Positions 13,417 to 59,224 of a DNA stretch of 64,000 nucleotides are shown one piece after another. The stretch is taken from assembly GCA_964016885.1 (NCBI GenBank), contig OZ024740.1, positions 99,572,001 through 99,636,000 on the forward strand, written 5' to 3'. The notes under the pieces are model-generated. The model did no database searches. It worked only from the letters and a program-made list of their open reading frames with translations, and was not told the origin of the DNA. How positions within the stretch are numbered: position 1 is the first letter of the stretch; every line of letters begins with the position of its first letter. The position numbers were made by a program, and so were the translations under genes. The DNA is from Eledone cirrhosa (Eukaryota).

Positions 13417-13451
<35 letters not shown>

Positions 13452-13782
13452 CATATACATACACACATACATAGACATATATGTACATACATACACATAC
13501 ATAGATACACACACACACATACATACATATATATATATACACACACATAGACATATACATACATACACACACAACATACATACACACATATATACTCATA
13601 CATAGAATTAGATATATAATCATACATACATACGCACTTACATATACTCATATATACAAATACATACGCATCCATATATGCGTATATACATAGAAACATC
13701 ACTACACCCTCACCCAACTCAGACATACAAAGAAAAATGCATATACATATACATATATACACGCATTAATAGAGATATATAT

Positions 13783-13822
<40 letters not shown>

Positions 13823-14034
13823 ACTTATATACATATACCCACACACACATACAACCATAAATACACATACAAACACCCACATATACATATATATACACAT
13901 ATATATATATACACACACATAAAAAACAGACATGCACATATATATATTTTTTTTTACACATATATATACACATATATATACATATACACACCCTCACATA
14001 TACACACATACACATAAGTTATATTATAATAATA

Positions 14035-14079
<45 letters not shown>

Positions 14080-14358
14080 CGAATATAGACATATATACAC
14101 ACATAGATACACATATATATATATATATACACATACATATACACACACACACATATACACATTCACATATATATGTGTGTGCACACACACATATATATAC
14201 ATACACACATATAGACATAAACACATATATGTGTATACATGCACACACCCACATATATCCACATAGATACGAAGATAGACATATAAATAGAGAGACATAC
14301 ATATATATACACACACACATATACATACATACATACACACACATATATATATATATAC

Positions 14359-14404
<46 letters not shown>

Positions 14405-14460
14405 AGACATACACATACACACACATATACACATGTATATATACACATATACACATACAT

Positions 14461-14535
<75 letters not shown>

Positions 14536-18141: not shown

Positions 18142-18182
18142 ACTGGACCAGAAACACATATAGTAATCTATTTGATATTACT

Positions 18183-19685: not shown

Positions 19686-20921
19686 TAACATTATTTTAGA
19701 AATTAATTTAATTTAAATGTTAGTTAACCTATAAATTTAATTTAATTAAAGTTCTATTACAGATGAGAATATAAAATATTATGTAATCATAAATTGTGAA
19801 AAACCTTTAAATATTACTAATATATACTTAGTAATTTAATTTATAGATTAATTTTAATTTATTTAAACCTTTTATTATAATTCTTTTACAGATAAAATAT
19901 AACAAAATATCGTGTATCCAATGACAGAGAAATAATTTTTAGTATTATAGACCTAATTAATATACATTTTAGAAATATATTTATAATTTGGTTTTAATTT
20001 TAATCAACCTAAAAATTTAATTTAATTGGCTTAAAATTAGTATCCTTATACAGACGAATTGCAGAATGTCATGTAATCATAGAATGGGATGTGTTTTGGA
20101 TATATACCTAGTTAATATATTCTTTGCAATTTTTGAAAAAATATGTATATGTATATGTGTATGTGTATGTGTGTGCGTGTGTATATGTGTATATATGTAT
20201 ATATATATGTATATATATGTATATATATATGTGTATGTATATGTATATGTATATGTATTAATTTTGATTTCTATTTGCATATAATTATATTCTGCTATTG
20301 ATAAAATACAATATCTGTTTTATTTATTATATACCTAATTAACATATACTATAGAAATAAATATATAATTTTTAATTTAGTTAACCTATAATTTATATTC
20401 TACTACCGATGTAATACTTTATTTGTTTTTTCCCTATTACTAAATTCATTTCCTAATATTGATACCATAACGTTATTAACTTTAATTTAGTTATACTATA
20501 ATTAATACTCTACTACTATTTAACTTCAAAACTCTGCTTCAAATATTATAAACCTAACTAATTTACACCTTAGAAATCAATATGTTAACTATCTTTAGTT
20601 TAGTTAACATATAATTAATGGTATACTTATTTATTTTGAAATGCATAAATTTTGCCTTATTTCTTGTTTATTGTATTTCCTAACACTGAAACTATGTAAA
20701 AACATACATTGGATCTAGATACGGATAATATTCTATGTTTCTTGAAACATATATTTACTATAATCCCCTTCTCAAACCCCCCCCCTTTCCCCCATACTAT
20801 TATCATCTGTGTTTGTAAGCGTGTATGTATGAATATATATGTAGGTAGGTGTATATAGGTTTGGGTATTTATATCTGAATATAAAAATACATATATGCGC
20901 ATGCAAATATGAATGTAAGAT

Positions 20922-20972
<51 letters not shown>

Positions 20973-21029
20973 ATGTATGTGTATATGTGTATATATACAT
21001 GTGTATATGTGTGTGTATGTGTATGTCTG

Positions 21030-21098
<69 letters not shown>

Positions 21099-21347
21099 GT
21101 GTGTATGTATGTATGTATATGTGTGTGTGTATATATATGTATGTCTCTCTATTTATATGTCTATCTTCGTATCTATGTGGATATATGTGGGTGTGTGCAT
21201 GTATACACATATATGTGTTTATGTCTATATGTGTGTATGTATATATATGTGTGTGTGCACACACATATATATGTGAATGTGTATATGTGTGTGTGTGTAT
21301 ATGTATGTGTATATATATATATATGTGTGTATATATGTCTATATTCG

Positions 21348-21408
<61 letters not shown>

Positions 21409-21620
21409 TATTATTATAATATAACTTATGTGTATGTGTGTATATGTGAGGGTGTGTATATGTATATATATGTGTATATATATGTGTAAAAAAAAATATA
21501 TATATGTGCATGTCTGTTTTTTATGTGTGTGTATATATATATATGTGTATATATATGTATATGTGGGTGTTTGTATGTGTATTTATGGTTGTATGTGTGT
21601 GTGGGTATATGTATATAAGT

Positions 21621-21652
<32 letters not shown>

Positions 21653-21767
21653 GTGCATGTCTGTTTTTTATGTGTGTGTATATATATATATGTGTATATA
21701 TATGTATATGTGGGTGTTTGTATGTGTATTTATGGTTGTATGTGTGTGTGGGTATATGTATATAAGT

Positions 21768-21807
<40 letters not shown>

Positions 21808-22371
21808 ATATATATCTCTATTAATGCGTGTATATATGTATATGTATATGCATTTTTCTTTGTATGTCTGAGTTGGGTGAGGGTGTAGTGATGTTTCTAT
21901 GTATATACGCATATATGGATGCGTATGTATTTGTATATATGAGTATATGTAAGTGCGTATGTATGTATGATTATATATCTAATTCTATGTATGAGTATAT
22001 ATGTGTGTATGTATGTTGTGTGTGTATGTATGTATATGTCTATGTGTGTGTATATATATATATGTATGTATGTGTGTGTGTGTATCTATGTATGTGTATG
22101 TATGTACATATATGTCTATGTATGTGTGTATGTATATGTATGTATATATATATATATATATATCTTTATTTTTTATATATATGTGTGTGTGTGTATGTGT
22201 GTGTGTGTGTTTATATATCTTTATATATGTGTATGTGTATGTTCGTGTAGGTGTATGTGTGTGTATGACTATATATGTATGTGTGTATGTGTGTATGTGT
22301 GTATATATCTATGTGTGTGTACATGTATGTATGTGTATGTATGTGTATGTGTGTATGTGTGTATATGTATA

Positions 22372-22440
<69 letters not shown>

Positions 22441-22727
22441 GTTTCTCTATTTGTATATGTATATGTGTATAGGTATATACCTTTTTCTTTGTATGTCTGA
22501 GTTGTGTGAGAGTGTAGTGGTGTTTGTATGTATATACCGATATATAGATGCGTAAGTATTTGTCTGTATGTATGTATATATGTCTGTATATATTTGTGTG
22601 TATATATAGGTATGTATGTGTATATCTGTATGTATATATGTAGGTAAGTGTATGTATATGTGAGTGTATGTGTGTATATATATGTGTGTCTATATAGTAT
22701 GTGTGATTATATGTGTATGTATGAGTG

Positions 22728-22782
<55 letters not shown>

Positions 22783-22930
22783 GTGTATTTATATGTATGT
22801 GTGTATATGTATGTATGTGTGTATATGTATATGTTTATATATGTGTGTGTATGTATGTTCTAAGTGTGGATGTGTGTATATGTATGTATGTGTTTGTATA
22901 TGTGTATGTATATATATGTGTGTGTGTGTG

Positions 22931-22993
<63 letters not shown>

Positions 22994-23641
22994 TTTCTTG
23001 ATATATTTCTTTTTTCTTTTTTCTTTTTCTTTTCTTTCCTTTTTAATGTTTATTTATTATTTATTATTTTTTATTATTTTTTATTTTCTTAGTTTATAGA
23101 TACATCTATATTAAGCAGTCTGCCCAAACAGTTGAATACTGACCTCTCCCCCCCCCCTCCCACCTAATTTCTGTATCTTGATCTAAATGTGTGTGCCAGT
23201 GTTTATGTGAGTGAATTAATATCCATGTGCTTAAGATTTTATATCCACACATATATATATATGTGAGTGGGGGTGTGTGTGTGTTTGTATGTTCGTAGTT
23301 TATGTGTATGTTTATGCATATACGCGCGTGTATGTGTGATTGTACGGATATGTGTTAGTATGAAAATATGTGTATACACTTATTTCATATTTATGTGTCT
23401 ATACGCATCTTATCTGTGCATTATAAACTTACAGAGACATTAACCTTGAAATTTTGTATTTGCATCCATCCTTTTTGTATGCGTATACAAGTTGTGCATA
23501 CATTTTTGTAAAATATGTGTAAGGGTAGTTACATGTATATACACACACCGAACTGCATTAAACCTTTTGTATTTTCATTGGTCAATTTTGTTCCCAAACG
23601 GACCTGAAAGTTTGAATTGTTGTTATTATCAATAAATATAT

Positions 23642-23795
23642 TTCATTATTTCTGAAGACGGCATATATATGTGTTGGTATGTATATTTAATCTTGATAGT
23701 TTGTATAATTTTGTATAATTTTGTACATAGATCTGTTGAATATGCATGCCAATTCTAACACATATATATCCTAGAAACGATCGTTAAATAGTGAA
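23642..23795 (+). ncRNA. Type I hammerhead ribozyme with 115-nt stem II (PLE right arm)
   Basis: Stem I TTCATTATTT/AAATAGTGAA; CTGAAGA at 23652; stem II ATATATATGTGTTGG/CTAACACATATATAT; GAAA at 23774; palindromic stem III ACGATCGT; cleavage triplet GUU after 23785. The base of stem II is imperfect. Confidence 0.72.
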
Positions 23796-24029
23796 CTTTT
23801 TTTGTTTAATATAAGGAACTGTTTCATTGTTTATTCATTATTTGTTTAATATTTTATCTTGACTCTGTATACCATTTATCTTTCACCGAAAGTGATTTTT
23901 CATTACATCTCTTCTTTCCATGATATCCGGAATACATTGAGTTCTTCATACGGATTGGACACTACCGTAAACTCTTGGTAGATTTATCTACATATATATA
24001 TATATATATATAGTTATATATATATATAG

Positions 24030-24102
<73 letters not shown>

Positions 24103-24113
24103 TATATATATAG

Positions 24114-24150
<37 letters not shown>

Positions 24151-24166
24151 TATATATATAGTTATA

Positions 24167-24206
<40 letters not shown>

Positions 24207-24335
24207 TATATATATAGTTATATATATATATATATAGTTATATATATATATATATAGTTATATATATATAGTTATATAGTTATATATATATAGTTATATA
24301 TATATAGTTATATATATATAGTTATATATATATAG

Positions 24336-24380
<45 letters not shown>

Positions 24381-24601
24381 TATATATATAGTTATATATA
24401 TATATATATATATATATAGTTATATATATATAGTTATATATATATATATATATAGTTATATATATATAGTTATCATATATATATATATATATATATAGTT
24501 ATATATATATAGTTATATATATATATATATATATATATAGTTATATATATATATAGTTATATATATATATACTATATATATAGTTATATATATATATATA
24601 G

Positions 24602-24648
<47 letters not shown>

Positions 24649-24693
24649 TATATATATATAGTTATATAGTTATATATATATATATATATATAG

Positions 24694-24727
<34 letters not shown>

Positions 24728-25064
24728 GTTATATATATATATATATAGTTCGTTTCTGAATTTGTTATATATATATATATTTATATATATATATATATAG
24801 TTCGTTTCTGAATTTGTTATATATATATATATTTATATATATATATATATAGTTCGTTTCTGAATTTGTTATATATATATATATTTATATATATATATAT
24901 ATAGTTCGTTTCTGAATTTGATATATATATATATATTTATATATATATATATAGTTCGTTTCTGAATTTGTTATATATATATATATATTTATATATAGAT
25001 ATATATAGTTATATATATATATAGTTATTTATATATATATATAGTTATATATATAGTATATTTG

Positions 25065-25099
<35 letters not shown>

Positions 25100-25306
25100 T
25101 ATATATATATATATAGTTATATATATATATATATATATAGTTATATATATATATATATATATAGTTATATATATATATATATATAGTTATATATATATAT
25201 ATATATATATAGTTATATATATGTATATATATAGTTATATATATATATATATATATAGTTATATATATATATATAGTTATATATATATATATATGTATAT
25301 ATATAG

Positions 25307-25357
<51 letters not shown>

Positions 25358-25366
25358 TATATATAG

Positions 25367-25407
<41 letters not shown>

Positions 25408-25441
25408 TATATATATATATATATATAAAGTTATATATAGT

Positions 25442-25473
<32 letters not shown>

Positions 25474-25509
25474 TATATATATATATATATATATAAAGTT
25501 ATATATAGT

Positions 25510-25541
<32 letters not shown>

Positions 25542-25700
25542 TATATAGTTATATAGTTATATATATATATATATATATAGTTATATATATATATATATAT
25601 ATATATAGTTATATATAGTTATATAGTTATATATATATATATATATAGTTATATATATATATATATATATATAGTTATATATATATATATATATATATAG

Positions 25701-25737
<37 letters not shown>

Positions 25738-25927
25738 TATATATATATAGTTATATATATATATATATATAGTTATATATATATATATATATATTAGTTA
25801 TATATATATATATATATAGTTATATATATATATAGTTATATATATATATATATATATAGTTATATATATATATAGTTATATATATATATAGTTATTATAT
25901 ATATATATAGTTATATATATATATAGT

Positions 25928-25959
<32 letters not shown>

Positions 25960-26028
25960 TATATATATATATATATATATATAGTTATATATATATATAG
26001 TATATATATAGTTATATATATATATAGT

Positions 26029-26060
<32 letters not shown>

Positions 26061-26202
26061 TATATATATATATAGTTATATATATATATATAGTTATATA
26101 TATATATATATAGTTATATATATATATATAGTTATATATATATATAGTTATATATATATATATATAGTTATATATATATATATATAGTTATATATATATA
26201 GT

Positions 26203-26241
<39 letters not shown>

Positions 26242-26324
26242 TATATATATAGTTATATATATATATATATAGTTATATATATATATATATAGTTATATAT
26301 ATATAGTTATATATATATATATAG

Positions 26325-26363
<39 letters not shown>

Positions 26364-26588
26364 TATATATATAGTTATATATATAGTTATATATATATAT
26401 ATATATATATATAGTTATATATATATAGTTATATATATATATATATATATATATAGTTATATATATATATAGTTATATATATATATAGTTATATATATAT
26501 ATATATATATATAGTTATATATATATATATAGTTATATATATATATATATATATAGTTATATATATATATATATATATAGTTATATAT

Positions 26589-26630
<42 letters not shown>

Positions 26631-26675
26631 TATATATATATAGTTATATAGTTATATATATATATATATATATAG

Positions 26676-26722
<47 letters not shown>

Positions 26723-27123
26723 TATATATATATAGTTATATAGTTATATATATATATATATATATATAGTTATATATATATATATATATATAGTTATATA
26801 TATATATATATAGTTCGTTTCTGAATTTGTTATATATATATATATTTATATATATATATATATAGTTCGTTTCTGAATTTGTTATATATATATATATTTA
26901 TATATATATATATATAGTTCGTTTCTGAATTGTTATATATATATATATTATATATATATATATATAGTTCGTTCTGAATTTGATATATATATATATATTT
27001 ATATATATATATATAGTCGTTTCTGAATTTGTTATATATATATATATATTTATATATAGATATATATAGTTATATATATATATAGTTATTTATATATATA
27101 TAGTTATATATATAGTATATTTG

Positions 27124-27158
<35 letters not shown>

Positions 27159-27427
27159 TATATATATATATATAGTTATATATATATATATATATATAGT
27201 TATATATATATATATATATATAGTTATATATATATATATATAGTTATATATATATATATATATATATAGTTATATATATGTATATATATAGTTATATATA
27301 TATATATATATATAGTTATATATATATATATAGTTATATATATATATATATATGTATATATATAGTTATATATATATATATATATATATATAGTTATATA
27401 TATATATATATATATATAAAGTTATAT

Positions 27428-27471
<44 letters not shown>

Positions 27472-27706
27472 TATATATATATATATATATATAAAGTTAT
27501 ATATAGTTATATATATATATATATATATATATAGTTATATATAGTTATATAGTTATATATATATATATATATATAGTTATATATATATATATATATATAT
27601 ATAGTTATATATAGTTATATAGTTATATATATATATATATATAGTTATATATATATATATATTATATATAGTTATATAGTTTATATATATATATATATAT
27701 ATATAG

Positions 27707-27745
<39 letters not shown>

Positions 27746-28027
27746 TATATATATATATAGATATATATATATATATAGTTATATATATATATATAGTTAT
27801 ATATATATATATAGTTATATATATATATATAGTTATATATATATATATAGTTATATATATATATATAGTTATATATATATATATAGTTATATATATATAT
27901 ATAGTTATATATATATATATAGTTATATATATATATATATAGTTATATAGTTATATATATAGTTATATATATATATATATAGTTATACATATATATATAT
28001 AGTTATATATATATATATATATATAGT

Positions 28028-28139
<112 letters not shown>

Positions 28140-28180
28140 TATATATATATATATATAGTTATATATATATATATATATAG

Positions 28181-28257
<77 letters not shown>

Positions 28258-28751
28258 TATATATATATAGTTATATATATATATATATATATAGTTATAT
28301 ATATATATAGTTATATATATATATAGTTATATATATATATATATATATAGTTATATATATATATAGTTATATATATATATAGTTATATATATATATATAT
28401 ATATAGTTATATATATATATAGTTATATATTATATAGTTATATATATATATATATATATAGTTATATATATATATAGTTATATATATATATAGTTATATA
28501 TATATATATAGTTATATATATATATATATATAGTTATATATATATATATAGTTATATATATATATATAGTTATATATATATATATATAGTTATATATATA
28601 TATATATAGTTATATATATATATATATATAGTTATATATATATATAGTTATATATATATATATATAGTTATATATATATATATAGTTATATATATATATA
28701 TATAGTTATATATATATGTATAGTTATATATATATATATATATATATATAG

Positions 28752-28788
<37 letters not shown>

Positions 28789-28947
28789 TATATATATATA
28801 TATAGATATATATATATAGTTATATATATATATAGTTATATATATATATATAGTTATATATATATATATATGTATATATATAGTTATATATATATATATA
28901 TATATATAGTTATATATATATATATATATATATAAAGTTATATATAG

Positions 28948-28990
<43 letters not shown>

Positions 28991-29025
28991 TATATATATA
29001 TATATATATATAAGTTATATATAGT

Positions 29026-29066
<41 letters not shown>

Positions 29067-29337
29067 TATATATATATATATATATATAAAGTTATATATA
29101 GTTATATATATATATATATATATATATAGTTATATATAGTTATATAGTTATATATATATATATTATATATAGTTATATATAGTTATATAGTTATATATAT
29201 ATATATATATATAGTTATATATATATATATATATATATATAGTTATATATAGTTATATAGTTATATATATATATATATAGTTATATATATATATATATAT
29301 ATATAGTTATATAGTTATATATATAATATATATATAG

Positions 29338-29378
<41 letters not shown>

Positions 29379-29648
29379 TATATATATATATAGATATATA
29401 TATATTAGTTATATATATATATAGTTATATATATATATATAGTTATATATATATATATAGTTATATATATATATAGTTATATATATATATAGTTATATAT
29501 ATATATATAGTTATATATATATATATAGTTATATATATATATATATAGTTATATATATATATATATAGTTATATATATATATATATAGTTATATAGTTAT
29601 ATATATAGTTATATATATATATATATAGTTATACATATATATATATAG

Positions 29649-29755
<107 letters not shown>

Positions 29756-29782
29756 GTTATATATATATATATATATATATAG

Positions 29783-29819
<37 letters not shown>

Positions 29820-29858
29820 TATATATATATATATAGTTATATATATATATATATATAG

Positions 29859-29893
<35 letters not shown>

Positions 29894-30066
29894 TATATAT
29901 ATATATATATATAGTTATATATATATATATAGTTATATATATATATAGTTATATATATATATATATATATAGTTATATATATATATATAGTTATATATAT
30001 ATATAGTTATATATATATATAGTTATATATATATATATATTATATATAGTTATATATATATATAGT

Positions 30067-30098
<32 letters not shown>

Positions 30099-30313
30099 TA
30101 TATATATATAGTTATATATATATATATTATATATATATAGTTATATATATATATATAGTTATATATATATATATATAGTTATATATATATATATATATAG
30201 TTATATATATATATAGTTATATATATATAGTTATATATATATATATATAGTCTATATATATATATATATAGTTATATATAATAATATATATAGTTATATA
30301 TATATAGTTATAT

Positions 30314-30347
<34 letters not shown>

Positions 30348-30480
30348 GTTATATATATAGTTATATATATATATATATATCTATATATATATATATATAT
30401 ATAGTTATATATATATAGTTATATATATATATATATATATATATAGTTATATATATATATAGTTATATATATATATAGTT

Positions 30481-30680
30481 NNNNNNNNNNNNNNNNNNNN
30501 NNNNNNNNNNNNNNNNNNNNNNNNNNNNNNNNNNNNNNNNNNNNNNNNNNNNNNNNNNNNNNNNNNNNNNNNNNNNNNNNNNNNNNNNNNNNNNNNNNNN
30601 NNNNNNNNNNNNNNNNNNNNNNNNNNNNNNNNNNNNNNNNNNNNNNNNNNNNNNNNNNNNNNNNNNNNNNNNNNNNNNNN
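30481..30680. other. Assembly gap (200 N)
   Basis: Run of N; contiguity across it is unproven. Confidence 1.
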
Positions 30681-30686
30681 ATATAG

Positions 30687-30751
<65 letters not shown>

Positions 30752-30752
30752 G

Positions 30753-30793
<41 letters not shown>

Positions 30794-30824
30794 GATATAT
30801 ATATATATATAGATATATAGATAT

Positions 30825-30906
<82 letters not shown>

Positions 30907-30926
30907 TATATATAGATATATATATA

Positions 30927-30999
<73 letters not shown>

Positions 31000-31020
31000 T
31001 ATAGATATATATATATATAT

Positions 31021-31061
<41 letters not shown>

Positions 31062-31064
31062 TAT

Positions 31065-31194
<130 letters not shown>

Positions 31195-31219
31195 TATATA
31201 TATATATATATATATATAT

Positions 31220-31254
<35 letters not shown>

Positions 31255-31441
31255 TATATATACATATATATATATATATAGATATATATACATATATATA
31301 TATATATACATGTATATATATATATATAGATATATATACATATATATATATATATATAGTTATATATATATATATATATATAGAGTTATATATATATATA
31401 TATATATATATAGATATATATACATATATATATATATATAG

Positions 31442-31474
<33 letters not shown>

Positions 31475-31707
31475 GTTATATATATATATATATATATATA
31501 GTTATATATATATATATATATATATAGTTATATATATATATATATATATATAGTTATATATATATATATATATATATAGTTATATATAGATATATATATA
31601 TATATAGATATATATACATATATATATATATAGTTATATATATATATAGTTATATATACATATATATATATATATATACATAATATATATATAGTTATAT
31701 ATATATG

Positions 31708-31766
<59 letters not shown>

Positions 31767-31767
31767 G

Positions 31768-31812
<45 letters not shown>

Positions 31813-31813
31813 G

Positions 31814-31918
<105 letters not shown>

Positions 31919-31919
31919 G

Positions 31920-32122
<203 letters not shown>

Positions 32123-32133
32123 ATATATATGTA

Positions 32134-32351
<218 letters not shown>

Positions 32352-32352
32352 C

Positions 32353-32434
<82 letters not shown>

Positions 32435-32483
32435 AGTTATATATACAAATATAGTTATATATACATATATAGTTATATACATA

Positions 32484-32579
<96 letters not shown>

Positions 32580-32590
32580 TATATATATAC

Positions 32591-32627
<37 letters not shown>

Positions 32628-33266
32628 CATATATAGTTATATATACATATATAGTTATATATACATATATATATATATATATACATATATAGTTATATAT
32701 ACATATATATATATATATATACATATATAGTTATATATACATATACATATATAGTTATATATACATATATAGTTATATATACATATACATATATAGTTAT
32801 ATATACATATATAGTTATATATACATATATATATATATATATACATATATAGTTATATATACATATATATATATAGTTATATATATATATACATATATAT
32901 ATATATAGTTATATATATATATACATATATATATAGTTATATATATATATACTTATATATATATAGTTATATATATATATACTTATATATATATAGTTAT
33001 ATATATATATACATATATATATATAGTTATATATATATATACATATATATATATATTTATATATATATATACATATATATATATAGTTATATATATATAT
33101 ATAGTTATATATAGTTATATATATATATATATATATAGTTATATATATATATATATATATATATAGTTATATATATATATATATATATATAGTTATATAT
33201 ATATATATATATATATAGTTATATATATATATATATATATATATAGTTATATATATATATATATAG

Positions 33267-33301
<35 letters not shown>

Positions 33302-33326
33302 TATATATATATATATATATATATAG

Positions 33327-33365
<39 letters not shown>

Positions 33366-33404
33366 TAGATATATAGATATATATATATAGTTATATATAT
33401 ATAG

Positions 33405-33461
<57 letters not shown>

Positions 33462-33484
33462 TATATATATATATATATATATAG

Positions 33485-33523
<39 letters not shown>

Positions 33524-33638
33524 TATATATATATATATATAGATATATATACATATATATATATATACATGTATATATATATATAGATATATATACATAT
33601 ATATATATATATAGTTATATATATATATATATATAGAG

Positions 33639-33675
<37 letters not shown>

Positions 33676-33827
33676 TATATATATATATATAGATATATAT
33701 ACATATATATATATATATATAGTTATATATATATATATATATATAGTTATATATATATATATATATATATAGTTATATATATATATATATATATATATAG
33801 TTATATATATATATATATATATATAGT

Positions 33828-33859
<32 letters not shown>

Positions 33860-33966
33860 TATATAGATATATATATATATATAGATATATATACATAATA
33901 TATATATATAGTTATATATACATATATATATATATATAGTTATATACATATATATATATATATAGT

Positions 33967-34008
<42 letters not shown>

Positions 34009-34053
34009 TATATACATATATATATATATATATACATAAATATATATATATAG

Positions 34054-34195
<142 letters not shown>

Positions 34196-34196
34196 G

Positions 34197-34513
<317 letters not shown>

Positions 34514-34524
34514 ATATATATGTA

Positions 34525-34682
<158 letters not shown>

Positions 34683-34683
34683 C

Positions 34684-34748
<65 letters not shown>

Positions 34749-34790
34749 GTTATATATACAAATATAGTTATATATACATATATAGTTATA

Positions 34791-34821
<31 letters not shown>

Positions 34822-34836
34822 GTCTATATATATATA

Positions 34837-34874
<38 letters not shown>

Positions 34875-34904
34875 TATATATATATATATGTCTATATATA
34901 TATA

Positions 34905-35044
<140 letters not shown>

Positions 35045-35055
35045 TATATATATAC

Positions 35056-35092
<37 letters not shown>

Positions 35093-35624
35093 CATATATA
35101 GTTATATATACATATATAGTTATATATACATATATATATATATATATACATATATAGTTATATATACATATACATATATAGTTATATATACATATATAGT
35201 TATATATACATATATATATATATATATACATATATAGTTATATATACATATATATATATAGTTATATATATATATACATATATATATATATAGTTATATA
35301 TATATATACATATATATATATATAGTATATATATATATACTTATATATATATAGTTATATATATATACTTATATATATATAGTTATATATATATATACAT
35401 ATATATATATAGTTATATATATATATACATAAATATATATATTTATATATATATATACATATATATATATAGTTATATATATATATATAGTTATATATAG
35501 TTATATATATATATATATATAGTTATATATATATATATATATATATATAGTTATATATATATATATATATATATATAGTTATATATATATATATATATAT
35601 ATAGTTATATATATATATATATAG

Positions 35625-35717
<93 letters not shown>

Positions 35718-35750
35718 TATATATATATATATATAGTTATATATATATAG

Positions 35751-35855
<105 letters not shown>

Positions 35856-35876
35856 TATATATATATATATATATAG

Positions 35877-35915
<39 letters not shown>

Positions 35916-35936
35916 TATATATATATATATATATAG

Positions 35937-35979
<43 letters not shown>

Positions 35980-35998
35980 TATATATATATATATATAG

Positions 35999-36043
<45 letters not shown>

Positions 36044-37083
36044 TATATATATATATATATATAGTTATATATATATATATATATATAGTTATATATATAT
36101 ATATATATATAGTTATATATATATATATATATATAGTTATATATATATATATATATAGTTATATATATATATATATATATAGTTATATATATATATATAT
36201 ATATAGTTATATATATATATATATATATAGTTATATATATATATATATATATATAGTTATATATATATATATATATAGTTATATATATATATATATATAG
36301 TTATATATATATATATATATATAGTTATATATATATATATATAGTTATATATATATATATATATATATAGTTATATATATATATATATATAGTTATATAT
36401 ATATATATATATATATAGTTATATATATATAGTTATATATATACATATATATATATAGTTATATATACATATATATATATAGTTATATATAGTTATATAT
36501 ATACATATATATATATAGTTATATATACATATATATATATAGTTATATATAGTTATATATACATATATATATATAGTTATATATAGTTATATATACATAT
36601 ATATATATAGTTATATATATATATATATAGTTATATATACATATATATATATAGTTATATATAGTTATATATACATATATATATATAGTTATATATAGTT
36701 ATATATACATATATATATATAGTTATATATATATATATATATAGTTATATATATATATATATATAGTTATATATATATATATAGTTATATATATATATAT
36801 ATATAGTATATATATATATATATATAGTTATATATATATATATAGTTATATATATATATATATATAGTTATATATATATATATAGTTATATATATATATA
36901 TATATAGTTATATATATATATATATATAGTTATATATATATATATAGTTATATATATATATATATAGTTATATATATAGTTATATATATATATATAGTTA
37001 TATATATATATATAGTTATATATATATATATAGTTATATATATATATATATAGTTATATATATATATATAGTTATATATATAT

Positions 37084-37235
37084 GTAGATTAATCTACCAG
37101 AGGATATATATGTGTTAGAATTGGCATGCATATTCAACAGATCTATGTACAAAATTATACAAAATTATACAAACTATCAAAATTAAATATACATACCCAA
37201 CACATATATATGCCGTCTTCAGAAATAATGAAATA
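37084..37235 (-). mobile_element. Internally deleted mini-copy of the PLE 3' end
   Basis: 37084-37099 matches rc of 23976-23991, fused to rc of ~23638-23772 (HHR 5' half and stem II). About 200 nt including GAAA and stem III are missing. Confidence 0.88.
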
Positions 37236-38556
37236 TATATATATATAGTTATATATATATATATAGTTATATATATATATAGTTATATATATATATAGTT
37301 ATATATATATATATAGTTATATATAGTTATATATATATATATAGTTATATATATATAGTTATATATATATATATATAGTTATATATATAGTTATATATAT
37401 ATATATAGTTATATATATATATATAGTTATATATATATATATAACTATATATGTATATATATAGTTATATAGTTATATATATATATATATAGTTATATAG
37501 ATATAGTTATATAGTTATATATATATATATATAGTTATATAGATATATATAGTTATATAGATATAGTTATATAGATATATATATAGTTATATATATATAT
37601 ATAGTTTATATAGATATATATAGTTATATAGATATAGTTATAGATATATATAGTTATATAGATATATAGTTATATAGATATATAGTTATATAATATATAT
37701 AGTTATATAGATATATAGTTATATAGATATATATAGTTATATAGATATATATAGTTATATAGATATATATAGTTATATATATATATATAGTTATATATAT
37801 ATATATAGTTATAAAGATATATATAGTTATATAGATATATATAGTTATATAGATATATATAGTTATATAGATATATATAGTTATATAGATATATATAGTT
37901 ATATAGATATATATAGTTATATAGATATATATAGTTATATAGATATATATAGTTATATAGATATATATAGTTATATATATATATATAGTTATATATATAT
38001 ATATAGTTATATATATATATATATAGTTATATATAGATATATATAGTTATATATAGATATATATAGTTATATATATATATATAGTTATATATAGATATAT
38101 ATAGTTATATATATATATAGTTATATATATATATATATAGTTATATATATATATATATATATAGTTATATATATATATATAGTTATATATATATATATAT
38201 ATATAGTTATATATATATATATATATATAGTTATATATATATATATAGTTATATAGATATATATATAAAAACAAATAACGAAACGAAATTAAATTTCGTT
38301 TCGCTTCTAACTCACTTTTGTATGACTGACGCTTAAACAATTAAGTTAAAGTGTACATCTACATATGTATACGGAAGTATTAGTATGCATATAAATACAC
38401 ACTTGTATACATATGTACATGTACTCAGCTTTTCACTAGACACTTTACAGTGACTGTCAGCTTGTCTGTCTGTAACCACACAGACGGACCGGGTTTTAGA
38501 GTCATACGGGTTTTCAAGGAAACACATTTCGTCTATTCTCCAGAGGGCCAGACAGG

Positions 38557-38601
38557 AATATTGGACTAGTTTCGATATTATTACATCTCATCAGCAATAT
38601 T
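38557..38601 (-). ncRNA. Type I hammerhead ribozyme (469-bp unit L1)
   Basis: rc reads AATATTG CTGATGA GATGT-AATA-ATATC GAAA CTAG TC CAATATT. Confidence 0.92.
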
Positions 38602-39025
38602 TACCCATCTTCCGGCTTCTCTGGAGAATTGTAAAAGCACATATCGTTATATGCTTTTTCTATGAAAATTAGTAGTGGGTAGACTAATTTGCATAGAACG
38701 TGAGTCATTGTACGCACCGGTTCAGCGGAGACGATAAAAACAAATAACGAAACGAAATTAAATTTCGTTTCGCTTCTAACTCACTTCTGTATGACTGACG
38801 CTTAAACAATTAAGTTAAAGTGTACATCTACATATGTATACGGAAGTATTAGTATGCATATAAATACACACTTGTATACATATGTACATGTACTCAGCTT
38901 TTCACTAGACACTTTACAGTGAGTGTCAGCTAGTCTGTATGTAACCACACAGACGGACCGGGTTTTAGAGTCATACGGGTTTTCAAGGAAACACATTTCC
39001 TCTATTCTCCAGAGGGCCAGACAGG

Positions 39026-39070
39026 AATATTGGACTAGTTTCGATGTTATTACATCTCATCAGCAATATT
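39026..39070 (-). ncRNA. Type I hammerhead ribozyme (unit L2)
   Basis: As L1, with stem II GATGT/ACATC. Confidence 0.92.
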
Positions 39071-39412
39071 TACCCATCTTCCGGCTTCTCTGGAGAATTG
39101 TAAAAGCACATATCGTTATATGCTTTTTCTATGAAAATTAGTAGTGGGTAGACTAATTTGCATAGAACGTGAGTCATTGTACGCACCGGTTCAGCGGTAT
39201 TTAATTGTTTAAGCGTCAGTCATACAAAAGTGAGTTAGAAGCGAAACGAAATTTAATTTCGTTTCGTTATTTGTTTTTATCGTTTCCGCTGAACCGGTGC
39301 GTACAATGACTCACGTTCTATGCAAATTAGTCTACCCACTACTAATTTTCATAGAAAAAGCATATAACGATATGTGCTTTTACAATTCTCCAGAGAAGCC
39401 GGAAGATGGGTA

Positions 39413-39457
39413 AATATTGCTGATGAGATGTAATAATATCGAAACTAGTCCAATATT
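39413..39457 (+). ncRNA. Type I hammerhead ribozyme (unit R1)
   Basis: Stem I AATATTG/CAATATT; CTGATGA 39420-26; GAAA 39441-44; palindromic stem III ACTAGT; GUC cleavage after 39450. Confidence 0.93.
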
Positions 39458-39881
39458 CCTGTCTGGCCCTCTGGAGAATAGAGGAAATGTGTTTCCTTGA
39501 AAACCCGTATGACTCTAAAACCCGGTCCGTCTGTGAGGTTACATACAGACTAGCTGACACTCACTGTAAAGTGTCTAGTGAAAAGCTGAGTACATGTACA
39601 TATGTATACAAGTGTGTATTTATATGCATACTAATACTTCCGTATACATATGTAGATGTACACTTTAACTTAATTGTTTAAGCGTCAGTCATACAAAAGT
39701 GAGTTAGAAGCGAAACGAAATTTAATTTCGTTTCGTTACTTGTTTTTATCGTTTCCGCTGAACCGGTGCGTACAATGACTCACGTTCTATGCAAATTAGT
39801 CTACCCACTACTAATTTTCATAGAAAAAGCATATAACGATATGTGCTTTTACAATTCTCCAGAGAAGCCGGAAGATGGGTA

Positions 39882-39926
39882 AATATTGCTGATGAGATGT
39901 AATAACATCGAAACTAGTCCAATATT
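39882..39926 (+). ncRNA. Type I hammerhead ribozyme (unit R2)
   Basis: Same motif at +469. Confidence 0.93.
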
Positions 39927-40350
39927 CCTGTCTGGCCCTCTGGAGAATAGAGGAAATGTGTTTCCTTGAAAACCCGTATGACTCTAAAACCCGGTCCGTC
40001 TGTGTGGTTACATACATACTAGCTGACACTCACTGTAAAGTGTCTAGTGAAAAGCTGAGTACATGTACATATGTATACAAGTGTGTATTTATATGCATAC
40101 TAATACTTCCGTATACATATGTAGATGTACACTTTAACTTAATTGTTTAAGCGTCAGTCATACAAAAGTGAGTTAGAAGCGAAACGAAATTTAATTTCGT
40201 TTCGTTATTTGTTTTTATCGTTTCCGCTGAACCGGTGCGTACAATGACTCACGTTCTATGCAAATTAGTCTACCCACTACTAATTTTCATAGAAAAAGCA
40301 TATAACGATATGTGCTTTTACAATTCTCCAGAGAAGCCGGAAGATGGGTA

Positions 40351-40395
40351 AATATTGCTGATGAGATGTAATAACATCGAAACTAGTCCAATATT
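40351..40395 (+). ncRNA. Type I hammerhead ribozyme (unit R3)
   Basis: Same motif at +938. Confidence 0.93.
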
Positions 40396-40789
40396 CCTGT
40401 CTGGCCCTCTGGAGAATAGACGAAATGTGTTTCCTTGAAAACCCGTATGACTCTAAAACCCGGTCCGTCTGTGTGGTTACATACAGACTAGCTGACACTC
40501 ACTGTAAAGTGTCTAGTGAAAAGGTGAGTACATGTACATATGTATACAAGTGTGTATTTATATGCATACTAATACTTCCGTATACATATGTAGATGTACA
40601 CTTTAACTTAATTGTTTATATATATATATTTATATAGATATATATATATAGATATATATAGATATATATATATATATATAGTTATATAGATATATATATA
40701 TATATAGATATATATATATATAGTTATATAGATATATATATATATATATAGTTATATAGATATATATAGATATATATATATATATATAG

Positions 40790-40850
<61 letters not shown>

Positions 40851-41090
40851 TATAGTTATATATATATATAGTTATATATATATATAGTTTTATAGTTATA
40901 TGTATATATATAGTTATATATATATATATATAGTTATATATAGATTTTGAGTTTATGTTGGTTGTATACCAACACCTCAGTATGCAGGCTGGAGCACTCG
41001 ACGAAGTGCGCAAGTTGGTTTGGTTACTCCGGAGTAGTGTAAAATAAAGTTAAATAAAAGTCAAATGATTAAAATTTAGCTTCGTTTATT

Positions 41091-41145
41091 ACTGCTATAT
41101 ATATTTCAGTGACAGCCATCTTTGGCTGTGACCTCTTCAGGCAGT
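41091..41145 (-). ncRNA. Type I hammerhead ribozyme
   Basis: Mirror of 41361-41415. Confidence 0.85.
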
Positions 41146-41360
41146 TTGAATTAGTATGGTATAGACAAGTACATATGTTGTTTAGGTGTATGATATTGTC
41201 AATACTCTGATATGCCCAGTTCCTTGTTGGGTTGTTAATTCACTGGGGAACTGGAGTTCCTCAGTGAATTAACAACCCAACAAGGAACTGGCATATCAGA
41301 GTATTGACAATATCATACACCTAAACAACATATGTACTTGTCTATACCATACTAATTCAA

Positions 41361-41415
41361 ACTGCCTGAAGAGGTCACAGCCAAAGATGGCTGTCACTGA
41401 AATATATATAGCAGT
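41361..41415 (+). ncRNA. Type I hammerhead ribozyme (AUA cleavage triplet)
   Basis: ACTGC CTGAAGA GGTCACAGCCA-AAGA-TGGCTGTCACT GAAA TATATA TA GCAGT. Confidence 0.85.
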
Positions 41416-41457
41416 AATAAACGAAGCTAAATTTTAATCATTTGACTTTTATTTAAC

Positions 41458-43335
<1,878 letters not shown>

Positions 43336-43692
43336 TCATTTATATATATATGATATGTATAATGAACATGCATGCTTCTTGCTGCTGAATATAGGAAATA
43401 GTGCACAGAATACTTTTAATACTCTAATTTCACATTTCTGAAAATGCTTCCCTTAGGCTGGGTGTCTATTACAAGGTCAGAGAATATATATAAAAAATTC
43501 TCACATATATTTTTCTGGAAATAATGTAAAAGTGGGTAAATGTTATTGACAATGTGATTTTTTGACAACCCCTATCATGTAGAAATATGTATGAGTGTAT
43601 ATATGCAGGTGTGTATGTGTGATGTATGTATCTATATTTACATACATTTGATCTGTTGGACTGAATACATTTGAATCTTGAAATAATAGCAT

Positions 43693-45744: not shown

Positions 45745-47075
45745 CATCATCATGATCATCATCATCCTCGTTTTACGACCATTCTTCCATGCTAGCATGG
45801 GTTTGAGGGTTGTCCTGTTGTGGGCAGTGTCCAGTCAGCTGACCTTGTCTTGCTCATACGGCAACTGATTCTGGCTTGATTTGTACAGTTGGATGCTCTT
45901 CCTAACACCAACCTCATTTACAGTGAGAGCTGGATGCTTTTTTTCTTCCATGGCACCTACACGTCCACTCTATAGTGTGGGCTGGGTGCTTTTTTGCTGT
46001 GGCACCTCCATGACCAGTTTGCAGTGGGAGGGTATGGGGGCATATTGTCTATATGCTTCAACTTCGGCTTGTACCTGTAGGAAGTCAGGTCTTCTGTATT
46101 ACTGGGTGATGCCAGAAGTCACGGTCATGTGTCATCGCCTTTAAGAGGAGCAATTGTGTAAGGTCTTCTTGAGTCTCCCCACTCCGCGGCTTCCATCGAC
46201 TTCTAGTGCTCTGCACCTTTTTATGCAGCTGTCATCCTTCATACGCATCACATGTCCATACCAACGCAACCTACTCTCCTGCACACAGCATTTGATTCCT
46301 CTTATGCTCAGTCTCTCTCTCAATCTGTCTATGCTTTGCCGTTCGCGTATATTACTATTATAGATCCATCGGAGCATGCAAGCTTCGTTTCTTTCTAATC
46401 TGCGCAAGTCTACTACAGACAGTGCCTAGGTCTCACTACCATGTAACATTGCCGTTCGTATACACGCATCATACTGTCTGCCTTTCATTTTGGGGATGGA
46501 GTTCCTACCTACACCTTTCCTACATACTGAGCAAGGTAATTTCCCTGAGGGGATCTGGGTTCTGTATTCTCGTCTACTTACGAGGACCTTAGTCTTTGTC
46601 AGGTTGACTTTGTGACCCTTTCTTTCTAGTCCCTGCTTCCATGTTTGGAATTTCTTCTCTAGTTCCACCATAGATTCAGCTATAAGTGTGAGATCATCAG
46701 CATATAGGAGATCACATGGGCATCCGGTTTTAAACTCCTCCGTTATTGCCTGCAAATCTATAATGAACAGGGGAGGGCTAAGAACAGAGCCCTGGTGGAC
46801 ACTGACCTGTATGCTAAATTCCTCGCTATAGTCATTGCTAACCCTAACATTGCTGACTGCTCCTCTATACAAGGCTTGTAGAGCTTTCACAAGCCATTCA
46901 TCTACTCCTAGTTTCCTAAGACCCCACCAGATTATAGCACGGGGGACTCTGTCAAAGGCTTTTTCCAGATTGACGAATGCCAGATAGAGCGGATTACTTT
47001 TAGCTAGGTACTTTTCCTGTAACTGCCTCACAAGGAAGAGGGCACCAGTGGTACTTTTTCCTGGTACAAACCCAG
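45745..47075 (-). mobile_element. RTE-clade LINE fragment with internal deletion
   Basis: GFVPGKSTT, FVNLEKAFDRVPR, VHQGSVLSP, LLYADDL, AMLHGSET, RLRWYGHVMR; (CAT)n tail at ~45745. The deletion joins GRNSI to KMKGR. Confidence 0.88.
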
Positions 47076-47396
47076 TAATATATATTTATATATATATACT
47101 AGCTGAATTACCTGGGATTGCCTGGGTTACTGATGTTCTAATTCATGTATGTGTAGATGTGTGTTTGTATTCAATAACGTACCTAATGAATGTGCAAACA
47201 CATACACACTCACAGACACATACATATTCATATACAAAACGTGATATCCTATTGGTTTAATGCAAATGAAAATAAAAATTACATGCTGATACTCACGGGG
47301 TCTAATACCTTGTACAATTTAATTTGATTTGGTCCAGCCATTAGAGAATGCATAGGAGCAGGCAGACAAAGAATTTTATATCTACAGATATATCTA

Positions 47397-56483: not shown

Positions 56484-58397
56484 TTGCCATCACTGACGCT
56501 GATAAGAAGATAGCTTGGAAGTGTCACTACGAAAGGCTACTAAATGAGGAGAATAATTGGGAGAAAGACAGTCTCCCCCACATCGATCCAATAGAGGGAC
56601 CAGCAGTGCAAGTTGAAGGTAGTGTAATAAATAAGGCGATTAAAGACAGGCAAGGCGAATGGGGTCGTTCCGAAGGACTGGCGTAGCAGCATAATCATTA
56701 ACTGCTACAAATGTAGTTCGGGTTTGTGTCAGGTAAAAGTACAACAGACGCTCATTTCATTGTACGACAACTACAGGAGAAGTACCTAGCTAAAAGTAAA
56801 CCCCTTTTGTTGACTTGGAGAAAGCCTTTGACAGAGTACACCGATCGATTATCTGGTGGGCTCTTAGAAAACTAGATGTTGATGAATGGCTTGTGAGAGC
56901 TATACAAGCCATGTATAAAGAAACAGTCAGCAAGGTTAGAATTAACAACGAATATAGTGAAGAGTTTAGCGTAAAAGTTGGTGTTCATCAGGGCTCCGTC
57001 CTGAGCCCACTACTATTTATTATTGCCCTTCAGTCTATAACAGAGGAGTTCAAGACCGGCTCCCCATGGGAACTACTATATGCAGAGGATCTAACGCTCA
57101 TAGCTGAATCAATGGCTGAACTAGAGAAGAAATTCCAAACATGGAAGCATGGCCTAGAATCAAAAGGCCTTAAAATTAACCTGTCTATGACTAAAGTTCT
57201 AGTTTTAGGAAGGAAAATAGGCCATTGGTCCCATCTAGGAAATGGCCATGCTCAGTGTGTAGGAAAGGAGTAGACCGAAACTCCATTTTATGTCCCAAAT
57301 GCAAAGTATGGGTGCATAAAAGATGTATTGGGATCACAGGTAAGCTAACTAAGAATATAGATTTTATATGTGGCCGGTGCTCAGGTGCAATAAGTAGCAG
57401 CAAGTGCCCACTAAATACTAGCTCATTCCATTGCACAGATGGTTCTATAGAAATAGTGGACAGCTTCCGTTACCTGGGTGACAAAATCAGCAGTGAGAGA
57501 GGGTGCTCTGAAAGTACAGTAGCTAGAGTCAGAACGGGATGGAAACAGTTCAGAGAGCTAATACAACTATTGGCCGCTAAAGGGTTCTCTCTAAAAATGA
57601 AAGGCAGGCTGTATGATGCCTGCAAACGAACAGCAATGTTACATGGCAGTGAGACTTGGGCATTGTGTGCAGAGGATATACGCAGACTGGAGAGGAACGA
57701 AGCTTGCATGCTCCGTTGGATGTGTAATAGTGATATACGTGAACGGCAAAGCATAAATGAACTAAGGGAGAAATTAGTAATAAGAGGAATCAGATGTTGT
57801 TTACTCGAGAAAAGACTACGTTGGTATGGTCACGTGATGCTCATGAAAGACGACAGCTGTATAAAAAAGTGCAGGGCGACAAAAATAGACGGTAACTACG
57901 GAGTAGACAGACCCAGAAAAACCTGGGAGGACTTGATAAATTCCGACCTCACACACTTACATCTCTCCAAGACAATGTCACTGGACCGAGATCTTTGGCG
58001 CTACACTGTAATACAGAAGACTCGCCTTGCCTAAGTACAAAGCGAAACCTACAGTCAGTAGGCACCTGTAACAAAAATACACCTCCGGTTCACCACCCCT
58101 TTCAATGTAAAGTTATCTTGGTACCACAACATCCAGCCCGAAACAAATGAGGTTGTGTAGGTGTCACGACAAAAAAACACACAGTCCACGCTGTAATGTG
58201 GCCGTGTAGTTAACACGGTAAAAACCTCCCAGTACACACTGTAAACGTGGTTGGTGTTGGGAAGAGCACCCAGCCGTAGAAAACCTGCCAGACAATCCTA
58301 TACGAACAAGACAACCAATCTTGCCTCAAGTGGGAAAATTCCCGTACAAACCCATGCAAGCGTGGAAGATGGACGTTAAACGATGATGATGATGATG
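56480..58397 (+). mobile_element. RTE-clade LINE, 5'-truncated and frameshifted, with PHD-like finger inside RT
   Basis: AWKCHYERLLN, EKAFDRV, GVHQGSVLSPLLF, LLYAEDL, CSVC..CPKC..VHKRC..CGRC, FRYLGD, RLRWYGHV; tail GGACGTTAAAC(GAT)n. Confidence 0.9.
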
Positions 58398-58927: not shown

Positions 58928-59169
58928 ATTTTGAGTTTATGTTGGTTGTTCCTGAGAGAAATAACAACACTACCAGGAGCTGGACATATCGATGGATTGA
59001 CAGAGTAAAGTACACGTCAACAACATGTGTACTTGTCCTTCCCACACAAATTCAGACTGCCTGAAGAGGTCACAGCCAATGATGGCTGTCACCGAAATAT
59101 ATATAGCAGTATATCTATAATTTGTAATAAACGAAGCCAAATTTTACATATTTGACTTAATGACTTAAT

Positions 59170-59175
<6 letters not shown>
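58928..59175 (+). mobile_element. Second member of the 41-kb HHR mini-element family, inside (TA)n
   Basis: Starts with the same ATTTTGAGTTTATGTTGGTTGT terminus as 40944, then inverts into a diverged plus-strand copy of 41255-41457. Confidence 0.85.
59056..59110 (+). ncRNA. Type I hammerhead ribozyme
   Basis: ACTGC CTGAAGA GGTCACAGCCA-ATGA-TGGCTGTCACC GAAA TATATA TA GCAGT. Confidence 0.88.

Positions 59176-59224
<49 letters not shown>

Follow-up and report, generated by a model that had tools for sequence, protein, structure and literature searches.

The array at positions 38265..40618 of the window, by which we mean the whole 64,000-nucleotide stretch of Eledone cirrhosa contig OZ024740.1 analyzed here, raises the question of how a small ribozyme-bearing repeat comes to stand as two opposed tandem blocks between (TA)n tracts, which enzyme put it there, and from what form of RNA it was copied. 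A sequence-only reading of this DNA had proposed a hammerhead retrozyme array giving rise to a viroid-like circular RNA, with a neighboring Penelope-like element (PLE) as its candidate helper. We consider it probable that the array is a young insertion of a high-copy noncoding hammerhead-repeat family (an animal non-LTR retrozyme) that has two fixed ends and is likely copied in trans by a Penelope-like RT-endonuclease.

Structure of the Array

Both blocks of the array have a TRF period of 469, the left being the reverse complement of the right, such that the two stand head-to-head. The left arm (38265..39197, minus strand) measures 933 bp or 1.99 units (2.0 copies, 98%) and the right arm (39201..40618, plus strand) 1418 bp or 3.02 units (3.0 copies, 99%), with three extra bases at the inner junction (39198..39200). 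Unit positions are numbered from the predicted cut (position 1 is 39451), on the basis of a cut-to-cut reference monomer of 469 nt at 39451..39919 of the plus strand. In this numbering, the inner ends lie at unit positions 305 and 220, and the sense 3′ ends of the left and right arms, at unit positions 299 (site A) and 230 (site B), respectively, are each joined to a (TA)n-type target tract (23992..38267 on the left and 40617..40942 on the right). The proposed fold-back of 2 + 3 units is therefore borne out in unit number and in head-to-head orientation, but the arms are not whole units in one register, as their end positions differ (299 vs 230). The array has no LTR architecture, being bounded by (TA)n, and because both flanks are (TA)n, target-site duplications cannot be delimited. 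The unit is noncoding, with a longest stop-to-stop frame of 84 codons when circularized, and the GC content is 33% in the 2-kb bin that contains most of the array.

The Hammerhead Ribozyme and the Predicted Fold

All five units carry a type I hammerhead with the core CTGATGA...GAAACTAGTC. Three are on the plus strand, at 39404..39464, 39873..39933, and 40342..40402, with predicted cuts after 39450, 39919, and 40388, respectively, and two are on the minus strand, at 38550..38610 and 39019..39079, where the C17 positions that mark the predicted cuts are 38564 and 39033. Each is composed of a stem I (AAUAUUG/CAAUAUU) with a bulged extension, a 5-bp stem II, the core segments CUGAUGA and GAA, and a palindromic ACUAGU stem III followed by C17. 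The Rfam model HH9 matches all five at 29.9–31.8 bits (E 1.8e-5 to 7.7e-5), below its gathering score of 52, such that the Rfam search at the gathering threshold gave no match in the array; miRNA-family matches obtained alongside HH9 were discarded as low-complexity hairpins. The claim of a five-unit array with intact type I hammerheads stands on these results, the stems that had been quoted for the unit are all at their expected places, and the G-U/G-C variant of stem II is real.

Folding of the monomer, which had been suggested as a check, gives −160.7 kcal mol–1, as good as none of 100 shuffled sequences (z −12 for the linear and −9.6 for the circular form), with 70% of the bases paired. 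The predicted structure is branched, with 10 hairpins. The extended rod that had been described applies to the stem under the ribozyme, which is rod-like, but not to the monomer as a whole. Across 18 ribozyme variants of this family and of the sister family described below, 93% of cells in the predicted pairs are paired, and 7 of the 17 pairs are altered on both sides, in stems I and II. This score, which is inflated by the relatedness of the sequences, is equaled by none of 500 shuffles, and slid controls pair at 34–50%. The covariation was taken from a 60-column ribozyme alignment, in which ACTAGT is invariant by construction of the search pattern, and is limited to it because a two-family alignment of the whole unit is unreliable in its middle part. 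Within the 469-nt family, 36 of 328 paired positions are variable, compared to 33 of 141 unpaired positions, although, of the 34 changes that recur at paired sites, 13 disrupt the pair predicted for the window unit.

Stem III is just 1–2 bp long, and the hammerhead would therefore be expected to cut mainly as a dimer. The short stem III resembles that of the axolotl ribozyme HHR_Amex1, for which the accessible text of Cervera and de la Pena 2020 (PMC7229834) gives 6% cleavage of the monomer and good cleavage of the dimer. A U in place of C at the cut site (U17) occurs in 6,210 units, or about two-thirds of the counted cores, and would make for slower cleavage, as is usual at GUU. This triplet is nevertheless among the cleavable ones listed in the available part of PMC3138052. 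Self-cleavage and a 469-nt circular RNA are predictions. No RNA run containing the unit is listed among 23 runs, a result that bears on expression in neither direction.

We note in passing that sequence variants within arrays recur at unit positions 24–25 (window 39474–39475), in 7 and 6 of 36 arrays against a mean of 0.87, although some arrays are counted twice through overlapping loci. The substitutions are mixed and could reflect a base modification or a site at which the RT is error-prone.

A Dispersed, Young Family and Its Sister

Searching the animal's own genome (3.0 Gb) with the unit gave at least 1,246 candidates. Counts made with exact patterns, which are lower bounds, give at least 9,235 intact ribozyme cores of the 469-nt family and at least 1,541 exact A ends that run on into (AT)n, compared to none with the reversed-pattern control; copy number and flanks, both put forward for checking in the sequence-only reading, thus point to a large family set in (TA)n. 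Copies that are 98–100% identical are found on two contigs, two subfamilies, one with about 98% and the other with about 88% identity to the unit in the window, are distinguishable in the first 40 loci among the matches listed, and arrays range from under 1 to over 40 units. A sensitive search of masked loci also uncovered a sister family, collinear with the first at about 61% identity, of which a 34-mer has at least 10,903 matches (examples are L093:581–1096, L154:2433–2898, and L185). Its units of about 422–540 bp vary in length with an internal (TA)n hairpin, and its ribozyme has A17 at the cut site and a U-U at the base of stem II. When generalized to ribozymes of this type, the search pattern matches the genome at least 39,507 times, against none for the control. 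With this dispersal, the covarying stems, and the fact that no examined copy enters an ORF, the assignment to a noncoding type I hammerhead retrozyme family is upheld.

Four contig runs contain relatives 85–100% identical to the unit, under run labels that are coded. In one contig of run X5, which bears a different organism label, the loose end corresponding to window 39280 becomes (AT)n at site A.

Two Fixed Ends and the Penelope-like Signature

Where the arrays meet (TA)n, they do so at one of two fixed sites, A (unit position 299) or B (223–235), which are separated by about 70 nt. An internal copy of this region, with site B in the loop of a small CTTAA/TTAAG hairpin, followed by the tail hairpin and site A, lies at 39675..39749 of the plus strand. 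At the outer ends of the window array the corresponding terminal tail (38265..38333, minus strand), which we infer to be the interval between two RT start sites, is present at the A end only. Among the first 40 A-anchored loci of those listed, the far end is an inverted B in 28 (26 directly, and 2 that were initially open and closed as B on a longer fetch), something else in 12, and a second A in none; two of these loci, L055 and L056, are a single duplicated insertion. Anchoring on B gave a corresponding picture: among 31 distinct B sites of those listed, 19 lie opposite an A site and 7 more proved to be A-B after fetching, with 4 others, 1 open, and no B-B pair. The 19 pairings were matched by eye, and the A and B samples overlap and were drawn from the first 164 Mb of contig 1. 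In total, 34 of 39 inverted insertions have both canonical ends, one A and one B, the remaining 5 being open or complex. Arrays that look direct often retain an inverted B stub of 13–25 nt, and the sister family ends at positions homologous to A and B.

This arrangement has a close counterpart in PLEs. As presented in the available part of Frangieh 2024 (PMC11167929), AT-rich DNA is nicked by a PLE protein on both strands, each of which is extended, with synthesis starting at two internal RNA sites that bound the genomic tail, and Craig 2021 (PMC8557442), to the extent of the text at hand, describes inverted 5′ copies, a one-sided tail of 30–40 bp, and (TA)n targets. The Penelope-like insertion signature is present here in all of its parts, namely an inverted 5′ arm, a one-sided tail, two fixed ends, and a microsatellite target. 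Because one-A-one-B ends match the two-start-site tail of a PLE RT, they constitute junction-level evidence for the helper class that had been proposed, and PLE mobilization is now supported more strongly than it was before. We note, however, that the 12 of 40 A-anchored loci that lack a B end are evidence against this explanation. Also on the negative side are the length of the tail, compared with that of other PLE tails below, the U17 found at the cut site of many units, and the insertions (10 of 39) in which one arm is matched better at another locus.

The Neighboring Element as a Candidate Helper

While the class of the helper is supported, the PLE in the window is only a possible helper. 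This inverted, Hydra-type element (11722–23991) has an 801-aa RT and GIY-YIG frame on the minus strand (15772–18177), hammerheads of its own near 23652 and 11925, and a 134-nt tail (23858–23991). Its motifs (RVRW, DKT, CxCx5C, CxxC, and CxH) match the description of Hydra PLEs in the consulted sections of Craig 2021 (PMC8557442), and the assignment is made on these motifs because Pfam has no family for the protein and Atlas returned PLE-type clusters with no clade. There are 144 scored near-identical matches to it, many with 830-aa frames. As separate observations, the family is very young and elsewhere occurs in tandem with a period of about 6.65 kb; stem II of its hammerhead is 115 nt long, the cut site of this hammerhead is U17, and the tail of the element is far above the 30–40 nt described for PLEs.

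Comparison of the unit with the 3′ 2.6 kb of this element and with nearby pLTR fragments gave, among the matches listed, low-complexity similarity only. A helper or parent PLE with a sequence match to the unit was found neither in about 0.93 Mb of fetched loci nor in the window PLE, and none of the hammerhead-bearing families in the fetched loci has a tail that matches that of the unit. Since the shared similarity is of low complexity, the tails differ (134 vs about 70 nt), and many hammerhead-bearing PLE families, with two ends of their own, occupy the same (TA)n tracts, proximity does not single out the neighbor, the candidate of the sequence-only reading, as helper.

Arms, Junctions, and the Template

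The inner ends of the arms are spread evenly round the unit, with 4 of 90 within 10 nt of the cut compared to 3.8 expected. As they ignore the cut position, the RT would appear to read through it, and its template would be either circular or a multimer left uncut. Within an insertion, the positions of the two inner ends show no correlation (mean circular distance 109 nt vs 117, simulated p 0.21, for 45 junctions, one of them duplicated); an apparent closeness in a first subset was gone with all 45 junctions. In 29 of 39 insertions the two arms are mutually closest or tied-closest (strictly closest in 20), and in the remaining 10 one arm had a better match at another locus than in the opposite arm. 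The closeness of the arms favors a single RNA, or a single source, for both.

In the explanation that we prefer, arrays would be transcribed into multimeric RNA, which the hammerhead, with its short stem III, would cut mainly in dimeric form, giving monomers and multimers, some of them ligated into circles. A PLE protein, likely a dimer, would then nick both strands of a (TA)n tract and prime two cDNAs, one of them at site A and the other at site B, which lies about 70 nt upstream; the template of both would be a single RNA, or they would be copied from separate RNAs of common source. Synthesis of each cDNA would run past the ribozyme cut, its length being random and anywhere between 13 nt and more than 40 units, and the far ends of the two would be joined head-to-head. 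Published data also weigh against this explanation: the PLE hammerhead is dispensable for insertion in vitro, with no strand bias between the two start sites (Frangieh 2024, PMC11167929, from the portion available), and cleavage was seen in only one of nine Xenopus retrozyme dimers in the available text of Li et al. 2026 (bioRxiv 10.64898/2026.07.22.740005).

More tentatively, and as a reading somewhat less likely than not, we suggest that a dimer of a Penelope-like RT engages a single circular retrozyme RNA at two sites separated by 70 nt and carries out two simultaneous target-primed rolling-circle reactions, one per nicked strand, producing head-to-head arrays of up to about 20 kb in one event. 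If true, the model would account for the tails and inverted copies of PLEs at large, with these tens of thousands of young units as a readout of the reaction.

A conceivable variant, to which we would give about the same guarded standing, keeps the helper class and takes the template to be an uncut linear multimeric transcript, with the ribozyme weak or incidental and the circle unneeded for spread. The arrays themselves speak on both sides of this. In L124, the same ordered series of unit variants is mirrored in the two arms (5 variants are common at one offset, compared to no more than 1 at each of the other 14), and the units of L125 and L104 recur with trimer/tetramer and dimer periodicity, respectively, such that some arrays may point to multimeric templates, as may the predominance of U17 among the cores and the observation, in the accessible portion of Frangieh 2024 (PMC11167929), that unprocessed RNA is the main substrate of the anole PLE. 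However, copying of a linear transcript cannot lengthen arrays, yet the longest arms have 31 and at least 42 units; the 20 units of L128 are identical at all but one column over both arms; and the ribozyme core and stems are conserved with compensatory changes across families of 61% identity. The long arms and the near-uniform L128 may thus be counted for circles and L124, L125, and L104 for multimers, although such patterns could have other origins, in multimeric circles or in unequal crossover or conversion at a later time. As an additional detail, L125 (G000:C1:375633000–375642999) is a higher-order repeat of three and then four unit types with a 1,864-bp period, and its short inverted arm is an exact match to one unit type.

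The remaining alternatives depart further from the proposed trans-copying by a PLE. That the inverted arm was copied from the first at the DNA level by fold-back, or arose as a satellite rearrangement after insertion, we regard as improbable: the higher-order periodicity is typical of satellites, and the common series of L124 is in register with the smallest loop between the arms, but a mirrored series is seen in 1 of 26 inverted loci (those with 5 or more pieces, some being repeat views of one array), the uncorrelated inner ends and the fact that either arm can be the longer one are not what a fold-back would give, and the fixed B end with stubs down to 13 nt is left unexplained. Very improbable, and largely refuted by the loci at hand, is the view that the units are pLTR repeats from the 3′ end of a coding PLE, of which the arrays would be 5′-truncated copies, a possibility that the sequence-only reading had itself raised against its own proposal. 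The ends are indeed PLE-like; however, no examined insertion runs into a PLE ORF, whether in the 40 A-anchored loci, in a second set of 20 loci, or in 15 single sister-family loci, and of 120 variant A sites the 30 examined by eye are likewise not joined to one. No ORF with PLE RT and GIY-YIG was found inside or joined to any array examined, and the unit number is far from constant. Still harder to credit is an endogenized copy of an independently replicating viroid-like RNA, despite the small, highly paired, ribozyme-bearing unit and the occurrence of related sequence in runs labeled with 13 organisms, since those coded labels may mean kin, prey, or contamination. Against it, the hammerhead is on one polarity of the unit only, the fold is branched, there are thousands of genomic DNA copies with PLE-type ends, and one exact-pattern scan each of metagenome and viral contigs gave no match.

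Relation to Known Systems

On the sequence features, namely a hammerhead in consecutive tandem units, the absence of coding capacity, dispersed recent copies, and a highly self-paired monomer, the unit is assigned to the animal non-LTR retrozymes, an element class that is already known. As characterized in the available parts of PMC7229834 and bioRxiv 10.64898/2026.07.22.740005, these share with it noncoding tandem units that each contain one type I hammerhead, a GC content below 50%, a highly paired monomer, a weak palindromic helix III, dispersed arrays, and PLEs in the same genome. The unit had been called fairly large, and at 469 nt it does exceed the 170–400 nt given in the consulted text of Cervera and de la Pena 2020 (PMC7229834), but it falls within the 51–972 bp spanned by the consensus lengths excerpted from Li et al. 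2026, which makes its size ordinary. Unlike those retrozymes, as far as the available descriptions extend, the present family forms head-to-head arrays with two fixed ends; its RNA and circles are predicted, and a pLTR parent was not found in the loci examined.

Twin priming by LINE-1 also yields an inverted 5′ arm, both target strands priming cDNA on one RNA, with a variable second site and two pieces that are adjacent in the template. Here, in contrast, the position of the second site does not vary, and the overlap of the arms extends over entire units. Viroids and viroid-like replicons differ from the unit in its single-polarity ribozyme and its thousands of DNA copies. With PLEs, as portrayed in the extracts of PMC8557442 and PMC11167929 at our disposal, the unit shares the inverted 5′-truncated arm, the one-sided tail, the (TA)n target, and a type I hammerhead upstream of the ends, but it has no ORF, and both of its arms are concatemers of one small unit. 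Its tail of about 70 nt compares with 30–40 nt in the portion of Craig 2021 (PMC8557442) available and with about 60–135 nt in the hammerhead-bearing families of this genome, whose ends lie about 40–70 and 100–205 nt past the cut, as opposed to 230–299 nt in the unit. The nonautonomous Chlamys PLEs of the same source (Craig 2021, PMC8557442), such as MRC1, are likewise noncoding PLE passengers with multicopy head-to-tail insertions; as far as the text available goes, however, these resemble an autonomous family at their 3′ end and Chlamys elements mostly lack hammerheads, whereas the hammerhead of the unit is complete, and the loci examined revealed no autonomous family to match it.

The mobilization of retrozymes by PLEs has, in the available part of Li et al. 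2026 (bioRxiv 10.64898/2026.07.22.740005), been argued from co-occurrence and pLTR similarity only; a 2020 review (PMC7761336), in its accessible text, states that animal retrozyme repeats show no motif identifying their helper; and the corresponding sections of Craig 2021 (PMC8557442) call the formation of PLE inverted structures and tails undefined. The literature searched, judged at listing level, yielded no description of tails or inverted arms in retrozymes. What is added here is the PLE two-start-site signature at retrozyme junctions, conserved at homologous places in two families about 61% alike, and the strict one-A-one-B rule sets limits on models for the formation of tails and inverted structures in PLEs. 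Given about 39,500 related cores, young subfamilies, and intact PLE ORFs in one genome, both helper specificity and the choice between circle and multimer as template become directly testable.

Other Elements of the (TA)n Tracts

In loci L031–L140, at least 12 distinct hammerhead-bearing end families occur in (TA)n tracts, with paired ends about 60–135 nt apart, and several of them have a GAGTGCT-like word in the tail. Within the window, palindromic end fragments of another hammerhead-bearing family, with stem III AUAUAUAU and a one-sided tail of ~100 nt, lie at 40945–41465 and 58948–59176 and are probably PLE termini. The (TA)n-derived tracts are very long, up to 14 kb, with a strong G skew (1–7613, 23992–38267, and 41466–43361), and LINE-type RT fragments are found at 7601–9700, 46426–47085, 56800–58034, and 60877–61476, two of them with PHD-finger frames.
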